Shown: positions 17,992-21,841, counted from the stretch's first letter. The stretch: 64,000 bases of DNA from Methylophilales bacterium UBA4017 (GCA_002384685.1 DGAZ01000043.1:32462-96461); one strand, 5' to 3'. Program-made: numbers and translations. The notes: generated from the letters alone by a model not told the origin.

Positions 17992-19104
17992 CTAGGCTTT
18001 ATAAGGCGACCTTTCCTCTAATTCATTGGTATAAATATTCATTCTACCTCCCTCTTCTTCAAGAAATCTACCGATAGCATCTCTGAACTGCTCATTTACA
18101 ATATAATGACTTGAGAATGTATCGAAGGGTTCGAATCCTCTTGCAAGCTTATGTTCACCTTGAGCCCCCCCTTCGAAGATAGATAAATTATTCTCAATAC
18201 AGTATTCCTGACCTTGGTAATAACATAGTTCAAAGTGTAGGTAAGGAATGTATTTGATTGCACCCCAATACCTGCCGTACAAGTTGTCATTATCTAGAAT
18301 ATTTAATGCAGACCCAACCGGGCCTTCTTCATCGTAAGCAATAACAAGCAAGATTTTATGGGGTATCTCTTTAAAAATTCTATTAAAAAAATCATAGGAT
18401 AGATAGGGAGTTGAATTATGATCTGTATAGGTATGGCAATAGCATTGGTAAAAAAATGATAAATCTTCATCTGTTATATTCTTCCCTGTTTTTCTAATCA
18501 CACGCAAACTTAAGCTGTTTAGCTTCTTTCGCTCTTGTTTTATTTTTTTTCTTTTATGATGGGAAAGAGTGGCAAGGAAGTCATCGTAGTTCTTATACCC
18601 TCTATTAATCCATCTAAATTGGACGCCCTGTCTATGCATCCATCCTGACTCAGTCAATATTTGTTGGTCTTCTAAGCTTGTAAACAAAAAATGGCATGAA
18701 GAAATTTTATGTTGATGCATTATTTTTTCTAAAGACTTGATTAGCACGCGCTTAGCTTCAACATTTTCTGCCAAGATTCTTGGTCCGCTTATGGGCGTAA
18801 AAGGAATAGCACATACAAGTTTGGGATAATAACTTAACCCATGCCTCTGAAATGCTTCCGCCCAGGCCCAGTCAAAAACGTATTCGCCATAGGAGTGTTC
18901 TTTAATAAAAGTAGGTAGAAATCCAATGACTCTCCCCTCTTCTGATGCAATAATAGGGAAAGGTATCCAGCCAGTTCCTTTACCAATTGATAGTGATTTT
19001 TCTAATGCATTAAAAAATGCATAAGACAGAAAGGTGTTGTCAGGGAGGTGATCAAAATGCGACTCGAGATCAGCAAAGTTTGTTTTTGAAATAACTTCAA
19101 TCAT
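17992..19104 (-). CDS. GNAT/FemAB-like (DUF482) acyltransferase
   Basis: HSYGEYVFDWAWA, YYPKL...PFTP, LHFELCYYQ, FEGGAQGEHKLARGF. Confidence 0.9.
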   Translation of the reverse strand: MIEVISKTNFADLESHFDHLPDNTFLSYAFFNALEKSLSIGKGTGWIPFPIIASEEGRVIGFLPTFIKEHSYGEYVFDWAWAEAFQRHGLSYYPKLVCAIPFTPISGPRILAENVEAKRVLIKSLEKIMHQHKISSCHFLFTSLEDQQILTESGWMHRQGVQFRWINRGYKNYDDFLATLSHHKRKKIKQERKKLNSLSLRVIRKTGKNITDEDLSFFYQCYCHTYTDHNSTPYLSYDFFNRIFKEIPHKILLVIAYDEEGPVGSALNILDNDNLYGRYWGAIKYIPYLHFELCYYQGQEYCIENNLSIFEGGAQGEHKLARGFEPFDTFSSHYIVNEQFRDAIGRFLEEEGGRMNIYTNELEERSPYKA

Positions 19105-19151: not shown

Positions 19152-19622
19152 TTAATTGCTTGTAGGTATTTGTTTTTTAAGTGAGGTAACGGGGCTATCC
19201 TTAAGCTTTTTGTCAGACACAATATTTGCATTGTATTTATTGAATTGTTTCTCATGATAATCTTTTGCTAAGATTGATAGCTCATCTAGGGTTATAACAT
19301 TGTCATTATCTATATCGACTTGTCTAAACTGCCTGGCTACTTGAGGGAGGCACTGCGTAACTTCGTAGACATCAAGGGTATTATCATTGTCTGGATCACA
19401 GGTATAAAACCTTTGCTCGACACTGTCTAGCATTTCACGTCTTTTTTGGTCATAAATCACACTATTCTTAGTATGGGTATGAGAAAATTCCTCTAACGCC
19501 TCACGTATAAGGTCTAATTGTGATGGCTCGGGGGAGCCCTTAGCATTATTAACATCAGCCCATGCTGTACTTATTGATGAAAAAACTAATATAAACAATA
19601 AGTTAAAAAAAATTTTATGCAT
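19152..19622 (-). CDS. Secreted two-EF-hand protein
   Basis: Signal peptide ending AWA; 12-residue loops DPDNDNTLDVYE (76-87) and DIDNDNVITLDE (103-114). Confidence 0.85.
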   Translation of the reverse strand: MHKIFFNLLFILVFSSISTAWADVNNAKGSPEPSQLDLIREALEEFSHTHTKNSVIYDQKRREMLDSVEQRFYTCDPDNDNTLDVYEVTQCLPQVARQFRQVDIDNDNVITLDELSILAKDYHEKQFNKYNANIVSDKKLKDSPVTSLKKQIPTSN

Positions 19623-19700
19623 TCAGTTTGTACGCTTATATTTAAAACGGATAACTATTCTGCTACTTAATTGTGAATCTAATGTTACAGGATAGAGATA

Positions 19701-19720
19701 AATTGTAACGGAATTGTAAC
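19701..19720. promoter_or_regulatory. Direct repeats; candidate OmpR-family binding site
   Basis: AATTGTAAC at 19701 and 19712 (11-bp period); related TGTTACA at 19683 and AATTGTGAA at 19669. Confidence 0.6.
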
Positions 19721-19792
19721 AACCAAATTTTCTATTTCAGGGTAATATGTTAAATAATTGATATACTTTCAATCTTCAGCAATTAAAACACT

Positions 19793-20512
19793 ATGACAAT
19801 AAACAACAATTCAGCTCAAATCGCCTTGGTGGATGACGATCCAAAAATAAGAGAGTTAACAGCAAAGTATTTAAGTGATCAAGGGATTTCAGTTGTTACA
19901 GCAGCCAATGGAGCCGAGCTTGACGAGCTAATGAAGAATTATAATATTAGTCTGATTGTTCTAGACTTAATGATGCCAGAAGAGTCTGGTTTAAATATAT
20001 GTCAACGACTCAGAGTGAATAAAATAGATACACCGATCATCATGCTCACTGCCAAGGGTGATGAGGTGGATAGGATTGTAGGATTGGAAATGGGTGCAGA
20101 TGACTACCTTCCAAAACCCTTTAATCCAAGAGAGTTGCTTGCCCGAATCAACGCCATTATAAGAAGGCAAAAAAGTCCTGCAGGTCAGTCAGATAAAACC
20201 ATAATTAAATTTGGTAATTTTGTATTTGATTTAACTAATAGAAGTTTGCTTAAAGATGAAAAAGAGATACAAATTACTGCGGGTGAGTACGAACTCTTAA
20301 GAGTCTTTGTTGAACATCCAAAGCAACCTTTGTCACGGGATCAAATTATGCGGCTGTCTAAGGGAAAAGAATTAGATGTATTTGACCGGAGCATTGATGT
20401 ACAAATATCAAGGCTTAGAAGGTTAATTGAAACAGATCCAAACACCCCAAAATTCCTACAAACTAAATGGGGATTTGGTTATATATTTATACCGGATAGT
20501 GAAGTCAAATAA
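19793..20512 (+). CDS. ompR: OmpR-family response regulator (OmpR/RisA-like)
   Basis: VDDD, LDLMMP, GADDYLPKPF, FDRSIDVQISRLRR, WGFGY. Confidence 0.9.
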   Translation: MTINNNSAQIALVDDDPKIRELTAKYLSDQGISVVTAANGAELDELMKNYNISLIVLDLMMPEESGLNICQRLRVNKIDTPIIMLTAKGDEVDRIVGLEMGADDYLPKPFNPRELLARINAIIRRQKSPAGQSDKTIIKFGNFVFDLTNRSLLKDEKEIQITAGEYELLRVFVEHPKQPLSRDQIMRLSKGKELDVFDRSIDVQISRLRRLIETDPNTPKFLQTKWGFGYIFIPDSEVK

Positions 20513-21841
20513 TTGAAGCTTATTCCTAAAACGTTTCTTGCCAGATTAACCTTATTAATCTCCGCCCTTCTTTTGATAGCACAAATTGCATCCCTTAGAA
20601 TATTTGATTATTTTGAAAGAGAGCCACGCGCACAATCCCTTGCACAAGAAATTGTCACAATTGTAAATTTTACAAAGGCTTCCTTAGAAGCCGCAGCCTA
20701 CAATAAAAGGCTGAAGCTTTTAAATGAATTGTCTGGTGTAGGAGATGTGAGCATTTATCCTGCTTATTACTTTGAGCCACTTGAACCTATACCAAATGAT
20801 CCTTTTTTGGAGCTTGTTGTTAAAAACATTAAGCGTAAATTACCCCCCGAAACCCTTATTACCATTAACCATTACGACATACCCGGTATTTGGGTAAGTT
20901 TTGAGATAGATTATGCACTTTTCTGGATAGTGGTTCCAAGAACCATTATTGACAGGCCTTTTCCTTGGCACTGGATTGGATGGGGAACAATAGTTTTTAT
21001 ATTAGCAATTTTAGGCTCTTACGCTACAACTCAAAGAATTAGCAGACCATTAAGGCAGGTAATTAATGGTGCTGAAAAAATTCGGCAAGGGTATTTCATA
21101 GAGCCATTGCCTTTAGATAATGTTACTGAATTTCGTGAGGTAAGTCAGGCATTTAATGAAATGGCAGCCAATCTATCAAAAATATCCAAAGAAAGAAGTT
21201 TTCTCTTAGCAAGTGTGTCACATGATATAAGGACGCCTTTGACTAGGTTAAGGCTAGCTGCTGAGATGCTTCCAAAAGGATCTGAACTAATGAAGGAAAG
21301 TATGGAGCAAGACATTGTTGAAATAAACGATATCATAAATCAGTTTCTAGAATATGCTCGAGGATTTGAAGATGAGAAAGTGGTGCCAACAAACCTTGGA
21401 AAGTTTTTAATTGAGGTTCAAAGCAAGCATAGGAGAATGGGCCAGAATTTTAAATTACAAAAAAGAAATATACGGGTAGATGTCCCTAAAAAACTTTTTA
21501 TAGACATTAGGCCTCTAGCTTTTCAAAGATGCCTTGATAACCTTATTAACAATGCCTTTTTTTACTCACACGGAGAGGTGGTAATTAAAGCTACCTTATT
21601 AGAAGAGAGCTTTATGATTAGCGTCTTAGATAAAGGCCCCGGGATCCCTGAAGATCAAAAAGATCAACTTTTAAAGCCGTTTGAGAGGGTTGATGAAGCA
21701 AGAGGTAATGAAGGTGGTAGTGGTCTTGGTCTTGCAATTGCAGACAGGATTGTTAAAGTTCATTCAGGCAGTCTGGAGTTAATTAACCGAAAAGAAGGTG
21801 GGCTCGAAGCCAGAATAACTATTCCTTTAAGTTTCGCTTAG
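20513..21841 (+). CDS. EnvZ/RisS-like sensor histidine kinase
   Basis: Two TMs, HAMP, H-box SHDIRTPLTRLRL, DKGPGI, GSGLGLAI. Confidence 0.9.
   Translation: MKLIPKTFLARLTLLISALLLIAQIASLRIFDYFEREPRAQSLAQEIVTIVNFTKASLEAAAYNKRLKLLNELSGVGDVSIYPAYYFEPLEPIPNDPFLELVVKNIKRKLPPETLITINHYDIPGIWVSFEIDYALFWIVVPRTIIDRPFPWHWIGWGTIVFILAILGSYATTQRISRPLRQVINGAEKIRQGYFIEPLPLDNVTEFREVSQAFNEMAANLSKISKERSFLLASVSHDIRTPLTRLRLAAEMLPKGSELMKESMEQDIVEINDIINQFLEYARGFEDEKVVPTNLGKFLIEVQSKHRRMGQNFKLQKRNIRVDVPKKLFIDIRPLAFQRCLDNLINNAFFYSHGEVVIKATLLEESFMISVLDKGPGIPEDQKDQLLKPFERVDEARGNEGGSGLGLAIADRIVKVHSGSLELINRKEGGLEARITIPLSFA

Follow-up and report, generated by a model that had tools for sequence, protein, structure and literature searches.

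A secreted EF-hand protein encoded divergently from ompR-envZ in Methylophilaceae is a candidate member of the OmpR/EnvZ circuit

CpxP and ZraP are periplasmic accessory proteins of the envelope two-component systems CpxAR and ZraSR, ZraP being a metal-binding protein, and both cpxP and zraP are divergent from the respective two-component operon with boxes for the regulator in the common spacer. MxbM is a response regulator of the OmpR family. Together with the kinase MxbD it forms the lanthanide switch of Methylobacterium, the ligand of MxbD being described as unknown (PMC7356819, PMC6850437), and MzrA is stated to act on the periplasmic domain of EnvZ (PMC2727453). Lanmodulin (LanM) has four EF loops in about 12 kDa with 12–13 residues between the loops and is found in a lut/lan cluster context; it adopts a three-helix-bundle fold with peripheral metal sites, folds upon addition of Ln and binds Ln3+ with picomolar affinity and a selectivity of about 1e8 relative to Ca2+ (PMC11845868). 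A large share of the lanthanide-dependent oxidation of methanol in the sea is due to OM43 and related Methylophilaceae (PMC11996626). Here we describe a locus at positions 19,152 to 21,841 of a 64,000-nucleotide stretch from Methylophilales bacterium UBA4017 (GCA_002384685.1, DGAZ01000043.1:32462-96461; the whole stretch is called the window), in which a gene for a secreted protein with two EF-hands (EF gene, EF protein) faces an OmpR/EnvZ pair. A preceding sequence-only reading had regarded it as a candidate lanthanide or calcium sensing module with a lanmodulin-like loop. The EF gene, the spacer and the two-component genes are arranged as follows:

19152..19622, minus strand: EF gene, coding for a 156-aa secreted two-EF-hand protein (open reading frame translation, Pfam, orthologues, AlphaFold2 model)
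19623..19792, no strand assigned: divergent regulatory region of 170 bp common to the EF gene and ompR
19683..19689, no strand assigned: single OmpR-type box TGTTACA, closer to the EF gene; family-wide element (A/G)TT(A/T)CA; box of the shared architecture TGT(T/A)(A/T)CA
19703..19720, plus strand: tandem OmpR-type boxes TTGTAAC-N4-TTGTAAC with an 11-bp period, the spacer consensus
19793..20512, plus strand: ompR, OmpR-type response regulator (NCBIfam OmpR equivalog, 331.6 bits, cut-off 331)
20513..21841, plus strand: envZ-like sensor kinase (Pfam RisS_PPD, E 1e-24; HAMP, HisKA, HATPase_c)

The divergent order is present in 97 of 97 Methylophilaceae loci, spanning OmpR identities from 100% to 57% and genomes of 1.2 Mb as well as 3 Mb. 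In streamlined genomes it is embedded in a syntenic block ychF-femAB-EF-ompR-envZ-cysG-miaB, and the adjacency of the EF gene and ompR persists in 2–3 Mb genomes in which the flanking genes are different. Outside the Methylophilaceae we found a divergent secreted EF-pair gene at 3 of 26 ompR loci and additionally at locus L079 (three other Burkholderiales families). Two genomes with such a pair have no pyrroloquinoline quinone (PQQ) alcohol dehydrogenase at an E-value of 1e-20 or better, which argues against a lanthanide-specific pairing. The regulator has exactly the recognition helix of E. coli OmpR (1opc), RSIDVQISRLRR. The kinase reaches 288.4 bits with the NCBIfam EnvZ model, which is under the cut-off of 415, and possesses the architecture of transmembrane segment, periplasmic domain, transmembrane segment, HAMP, HisKA and HATPase, with the periplasmic RisS-type domain located at residues 40–144 (nt 20630–20944).

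The hexamer of the TTGTAAC repeats occurs in 70 of 72 distinct spacers, and its density of 5.8 per kb in the spacers compared to 0.27 per kb in the window corresponds to an enrichment of about 20-fold. The spacer boxes match the E. coli OmpR repeat GTTACATTTTGTTACAT (PMC5438342) and also the Salmonella OmpR motif TGTWACAW (PMC3586657), including the single box at 19683–19689. Apart from OmpR, PhoB is the only winged-helix regulator found in the source genome and in five near-complete streamlined relatives, and as an internal control three canonical TGTCAT Pho boxes with an 11-bp period were found directly upstream of phoB (C16:977-1004); one further Pho box is located at C45:2466 of the same genome. 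From the identical recognition helix and the matching boxes we infer that OmpR binds to the spacer. A functional link between the EF protein and the adjacent two-component system, as postulated in the sequence-only reading, is strongly supported by the invariable divergent arrangement and the conserved OmpR-type boxes. With CpxP, ZraP and MzrA the EF protein has in common that it is small, periplasmic and mostly helical, and with cpxP and zraP its gene shares the divergent orientation and the predicted regulator boxes in the spacer. Different from all three are the missing sequence homology and the metal site, which is an EF-hand pair, and an interaction with the kinase would be proposed here by analogy.

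Based on these comparisons we propose that the EF protein is a periplasmic metal-binding member or accessory (or output) of the OmpR/EnvZ circuit of Methylophilaceae with Ca2+ as the most likely metal, a reading to which we would give about even chances. As one spacer with OmpR boxes serves both promoters, phosphorylated OmpR is predicted to control the EF protein as well as its own operon. The protein itself consists of a long N-terminal helix, one canonical EF-hand pair and a basic tail, the first EF-hand being probably locked in this lineage by a disulfide between Cys75 and Cys91. Its most likely task would be to report a periplasmic cation, or to buffer it, toward the RisS-type sensor domain of EnvZ; the cation expected by default is Ca2+. 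Within the same model it could also be merely an OmpR-controlled envelope effector.

The anatomy of the EF protein is given by the following features:

19557..19622, minus strand: signal peptide, residues 1–22, ...STAWA/DV (hydrophobic core and AxA site, read from the sequence)
19362..19397, minus strand: EF loop 1 DPDNDNTLDVYE, D76–E87; five carboxylate ligands, position 2 being Pro (sequence, orthologue cores)
19350..19400, minus strand: Cys75...Cys91 pair bracketing loop 1 (codons 19398-19400 and 19350-19352), a probable disulfide joining the entering and exiting helices
19326..19349, minus strand: linker helix LPQVARQF joining the loops, conserved more strongly than any other segment of the family
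19281..19316, minus strand: EF loop 2 DIDNDNVITLDE, D103–E114 (Pfam EF-hand_1/6 match at residues 97–118)

All orthologues begin with a hydrophobic N-terminal segment in the alignments, and the mature protein would start with D23, directly preceded by AWA. It continues with a long helix up to Cys75, followed by loop 1, Cys91, the LPQVARQF linker, loop 2 and the basic tail. Both loops are of the type D-x-D-x-D-...-E and satisfy the canonical ligand positions 1, 3, 5 and 12 of the 12-residue loop, both have Asn at position 6, and exactly 15 residues (88–102) lie between them. Position 2 is P77 in loop 1, which has Asp at position 9, and Ile in loop 2. The sequence-only reading had described the signal peptide, the two loops and their 15-residue gap, both cysteines as well as Pro2, Asp9 and Asn6 correctly. 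In 33 orthologues D1, D3, D9 and E12 of loop 1, the CLPQVAR of the linker and D1, D5, I8, D11 and E12 of loop 2 are invariant, and the linker has a length of 15 aa in 142 of 144 distinct orthologue cores. Loop 2 is recognized by Pfam EF-hand_6 (29.6 bits, cut-off 25) and EF-hand_1 (27.6 bits, cut-off 25.4), and the pair model EF-hand_7 gives 29.3 bits, slightly below its cut-off of 30. In the AlphaFold2 model, calculated from a 58-sequence alignment, residues 60–130 form a paired EF-hand with a beta bridge between the loops and a pLDDT of 94–98, the strands being located at 82–84 and 109–111 and the helices at 35–75, 85–102 and 112–140. Matches in the ESM Atlas are clusters named 'EF-hand domain-containing protein' and nothing more specific. 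Judged from these alignments and models, the EF-hand pair is real and conserved beyond chance. At the C-terminus most family members carry a basic tail with a terminal Leu (...KRSL, ...KKAL, ...ESPL), and the subclade of the window ends with ...PTSN.

Cys75 is located immediately before loop 1 and Cys91 four residues past its Glu12. In a standard EF-hand such hydrophobic-core positions pack the entering helix on the exiting helix, making a disulfide plausible, and the genome encodes DsbB for disulfide formation. Both cysteines are kept in 97 and both are missing in 47 of the 144 distinct cores, and never is a single one present. As this both-or-neither pattern corresponds to two changes on a tree of 166 proteins, the argument from covariation is a modest one, and we regard a Cys75–Cys91 disulfide as probable in the lineage of the window.

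The source genome has a size of 1.16 Mb and is 85% complete. Among named genomes it is closest to Methylophilales bacterium HTCC2181, OM43 single-cell genomes, KB13 and Ca. Methylopumilus, from which the host can be assigned to the marine OM43 clade of the Methylophilaceae; the family assumed in the sequence-only reading therefore holds. A profile search identified a homologue of the EF protein in 278 of 301 Methylophilaceae genomes and in 39 of 41 genera. Using a sample of 400 genomes from the order, 11 of 11 Methylophilaceae gave strong matches and other families matched with the EF core alone at E 1e-13 or weaker, and a class-level sample of 400 genomes, which takes in the two unpublished genomes G948 and G804, gave nothing beyond weak EF-core matches. 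These core-only matches indicate that the two-loop (L/M)P..AR.F module is widespread and that the full-length architecture is essentially specific for Methylophilaceae, in which, according to the profile search, it represents a core family. Secreted proteins with the widespread module ...D-x-D-x-D-G...(L/M)P-x-x-A-R-x-F-D-x-x-D... have the same two loops, a linker of 14–15 residues and the (L/M)P..AR.F helix. To this the Methylophilaceae family adds the N-terminal helix (MLDSVE.RF) and the fixed adjacency to ompR, and most of its lineages also add the Cys pair, Asp9 and the loss of Gly6. The sequence-only reading had already raised the caveat that LPQVARQF..VD also matches a widespread proteobacterial EF-hand family, and the (L/M)PxxARxF EF-pair module with its 15-residue spacing is widespread in bacteria. 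Two variants were noted in other Burkholderiales: the protein at L079 (G512:C39) shows a Cys-rich region of CKxNPEKC repeats, then one EF-pair module, and adjoins ompR in a genome with 21 PQQ alcohol dehydrogenase matches, and L080 (G658:C17) encodes a secreted protein with three tandem EF-pair modules separated by His/Met-rich spacers.

We then compared the EF protein with LanM, known from Methylorubrum extorquens and Hansschlegelia (6mi5, 8fns, 8dq2), which is likewise a small secreted EF-hand protein of methylotrophs with a short inter-loop spacing. The best sequence matches in the PDB are indeed the lanmodulins 8fns and 6mi5 with an E-value of about 4e-6, residues 61–89 being aligned to the last LanM EF-hand (EF4 region) and the helix before it. 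Loop 1 has D1-P2-D3-N4-D5-x-T7-L8-D9 in common with a LanM loop, and of the 9/12 identity to LanM EF3 that had been given in the sequence-only reading, eight of the first nine positions could be verified against the PDB LanM loop DPDNDGTLD, the last three being outside the displayed alignment. With the NCBIfam LanM equivalog NF053806, however, the protein scores 27.1 bits compared to a cut-off of 135 and matches model positions 93–119 alone, and the LanM hidden Markov model (HMM) weakly matches 47 of 58 family members, whichever residue they have at position 2. For XopAW, a Ca-binding EF-hand family, the HMM matches 45 of the 58 and its best E-value is better than that of the LanM HMM. The structure comparison led to a similar picture, with 8fns (Z 6.6) in a tie with the calmodulin N-domain and S100 proteins and Foldseek E-values of 0.01 or weaker, so that Foldseek and VIA-align give no separation of LanM from ordinary EF-hand proteins.

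Further differences concern the architecture, as the EF protein has two loops instead of four, a spacing of 15 residues instead of 12–13, and a long N-terminal helix, a Cys pair and a basic tail that are outside the LanM features given in PMC11845868, and its gene neighbours are FemAB_like, ompR, envZ and cysG and not a lut/lan uptake cluster. Pro2 is present here in one loop alone and is unconserved among orthologues: 14 of the 144 distinct cores have it, 13 of them belonging to the marine subclade of the window, and T, K, R, E, S or I is found elsewhere, which corresponds to about three changes on a maximum-likelihood tree of 166 distinct proteins. Position 9 of loop 1 is Asp in 107 and Ser in 34 of these cores, and Gly6 is present in 40. 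A LanM search of the source genome found no other candidate. Identity with lanmodulin was rejected on the grounds of the two loops, the 15-residue spacing, the low score, the rarity of Pro2 and a likeness that is common to the Ca-binding EF-hand family. By these comparisons the protein is an EF-hand pair and not a LanM, and for the whole family the LanM analogy is a superficial one. The lanmodulin-like loop of the sequence-only reading is thus a weak argument, because Pro2 is limited to the marine subclade, instead of being conserved in orthologues, and the short spacing belongs to the widespread module.

For predicted OmpR sites elsewhere the strict tandem pattern was used, giving four hits in the source genome against one control hit. 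It is present at three sites genome-wide, namely the EF/ompR spacer, upstream of the formate dehydrogenase operon (C27) and upstream of xoxF4, which codes for the lanthanide-dependent methanol dehydrogenase and where the repeats (C31:23515-23542) lie about 140–160 bp before the gene. The xoxF4 element is common to 31 of 32 loci from many genera (29 distinct sequences; L189 is without the anchor) and consists of three 11-bp-spaced repeats aTGTwAa-AAATTGTAAC-AAAgTGTTGCAAT. At loci L156, L164 and L173–L202 the repeats (TGTwAa / TTGTAAC / TGTTGCAAT) run into a -35/-10 pair, a layout which is that of classical OmpR-activated promoters. A sigma-54 reading of this element was rejected by inspection, as the GC has no GG 10 nt before it and the spacing does not fit. 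A relaxed pattern, scanned in five complete genomes from five genera, gave 21 hits against 9 in controls. It was always found in the EF/ompR spacer, at xoxF4 in two of the five genomes, at the cytochrome oxidase operon (a site also present in two OM43 genomes), at moxR/fabA in two genera and at a TonB receptor in one. Tandem TGTWAC sites were observed at C27:8157-8174 and at L160, L168 and L171 (G161), L161 (G026), L204 and L213 (G102), L206 (G039) and L203 (G083), their targets being the formate dehydrogenase operon, a cytochrome c oxidase cluster (by queA), a rhodopsin-like gene, moxR/fabA and a TonB-dependent receptor. The distribution of the boxes suggests an OmpR regulon of energy-metabolism genes. 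MxbD/MxbM resembles this situation in combining a periplasm-sensing HAMP kinase with a regulator, and MxbDM controls methanol dehydrogenase genes, just as predicted boxes precede xoxF4 here; an EF-hand partner is not mentioned in the MxbDM passages, and the regulator of the present locus scores as an OmpR equivalog. A homologue of MxbDM is cited for Methylobacillus flagellatus.

Three further observations concern xoxF4 and its relatives. Its 5' leader (L156–L202) contains a conserved inverted repeat CAAGCAC...N...GTGCT about 60–90 nt downstream of the TGTTGCAAT box, possibly acting as operator or as RNA hairpin. An apparent frameshift in the xoxF4 of the source genome (C31 about 24300; L156:2300-2315) was rejected, as 13 N followed by repeated sequence reveal an assembly gap. 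A second PQQ-dehydrogenase homologue, C33:23400-25028 on the minus strand (L001), codes for 581 aa with a lipoprotein-like signal ...LVGCQQ; it shows about 28% identity to XoxF4 and stays under the TIGR03075 cut-off.

Several points weigh against the proposed role of the EF protein as a Ca2+-binding member of the OmpR/EnvZ circuit. A Pfam scan found EF-hand families alone and no homology to CpxP, Spy, ZraP or MzrA, and the conserved adjacency could partly be the frozen gene order of streamlined genomes. As the sea holds Ca2+ at a constant concentration of about 10 mM, a high-affinity Ca2+ site would carry no signal there. The box is near-palindromic, which makes its orientation uncertain, and a position weight matrix made from the spacer boxes found 20 hits above 12 bits in the source genome compared to 26–39 in shuffled genomes, so it does not discriminate and the strict tandem pattern had to be used alone. 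The spacer boxes and the synteny would fit equally well to an OmpR-controlled periplasmic Ca2+ buffer or envelope effector that acts in cation homeostasis or in the stabilisation of lipopolysaccharide or the outer membrane without any feedback to the kinase. The basic C-terminal tail could bind anionic envelope components, a disulfide across the core of the first EF-hand would, from the Cys pattern and general EF-hand geometry, limit a sensor-type conformational switch, and the XopAW matches point to Ca2+ binding. On the other side, the strict one-to-one pairing with ompR-envZ and its recurrence elsewhere are more typical of accessory regulators than of regulon members, and we consider this explanation possible but clearly less probable than the proposed role. 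That the EF protein is just an unrelated neighbour, a generic secreted Ca2+-binding protein in an inherited gene order with the repeats serving ompR autoregulation alone, would agree with the synteny of the whole block from ychF to miaB and with the tandem repeats pointing toward ompR in the same sense as at xoxF4. As the adjacency is kept among other flanking genes in the 2–3 Mb genomes and recurs in other families, and as a separate conserved box is found on the EF side of the spacer, this appears very unlikely.

A role as lanthanide sensor or chaperone, in which the carboxylate-rich loop 1 with its Pro2 and its disulfide clamp would bind Ln3+ selectively, the protein would inform EnvZ, and xoxF4 together with other methylotrophy genes would be driven by OmpR, could draw on the lanmodulins as the best PDB and NCBIfam matches (E about 4e-6), on D1, D3, D5, D9 and E12 together with Pro2 in loop 1, as in LanM loops, and on the restriction of the full-length family to a family of XoxF4-dependent methylotrophs. 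Tandem boxes that abut the -35 region of xoxF4 across genera and PhoB and OmpR as the sole winged-helix regulators of streamlined genomes point in the same direction. From the literature it can be added that the ligand of the lanthanide-switch kinase MxbD is still unknown and that direct sensing of Fe3+ by EnvZ has been reported (PMC12167987). Pro2 and Asp9, however, are not kept throughout the family, Asp9 being replaced by Ser in 34 cores, the number and spacing of the loops do not fit, the 27 bits with the LanM HMM are far from 135 with non-Pro2 members matched just as widely and with XopAW (45 of 58) close to LanM (47 of 58), and the fold is no closer to LanM than to calmodulin or S100. 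EF-pair/ompR pairs also exist in genomes without a PQQ alcohol dehydrogenase, the main text of the lanpepsy paper on La-responsive proteins of Methylobacillus flagellatus names neither an EF-hand protein nor OmpR/EnvZ, and cox, formate dehydrogenase, rhodopsin and moxR have such boxes upstream as well, which points to a signal broader than the cofactor metal. Altogether we regard such a sensor as unlikely. The OmpR-type boxes at the xoxF4 promoter revive a part of the lanthanide idea in a new form, which is a doubtful one that we do not favour. Similarly improbable, judged from the predicted sites, is a recruitment of the 'osmoregulator' OmpR/EnvZ in Methylophilaceae, with the abundant marine OM43 clade among them, as master regulator of xoxF4, cytochrome oxidase, formate dehydrogenase, moxR and rhodopsin with the EF partner supplying a metal signal, namely the availability of lanthanides or the periplasmic Ln/Ca state; if it were true, XoxF-only methylotrophs would have a lanthanide-responsive circuit unrelated to LanM.

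The locus offers a testable circuit consisting of a conserved periplasmic EF-hand protein, a sensor kinase and a regulator with predicted boxes at its own promoter and at xoxF4. Our literature search found no paper linking OmpR/EnvZ to xoxF, and for Methylophilaceae none that names a lanthanide sensor or a xoxF4 regulator. Even with Ca2+ as the metal, an EF-hand protein as a fixed partner of EnvZ/OmpR and the control of a methanol dehydrogenase by OmpR would both be new if true.

On its other side the EF gene is followed by one more gene:

17992..19104, minus strand: FemAB_like (PF04339) gene, in the same orientation as the EF gene and 48 nt downstream of it (Pfam E 2.5e-139)

This adjacency is kept in most loci and the FemAB_like gene is possibly co-transcribed with the EF gene. 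The gene sequence was found with at least 99% identity in marine metatranscriptome contigs from three studies. These contigs span the EF gene into the FemAB_like gene, with ompR-envZ being present on separate contigs, and positions 19651–19776 are uncovered in three of four runs. As the runs were available as contigs, they show presence and rough ends and not expression levels or start sites, and give a weak hint of divergent transcripts from the spacer. At position 19377 all four metatranscriptome runs have A for G, a synonymous exchange in the Thr82 codon of loop 1.

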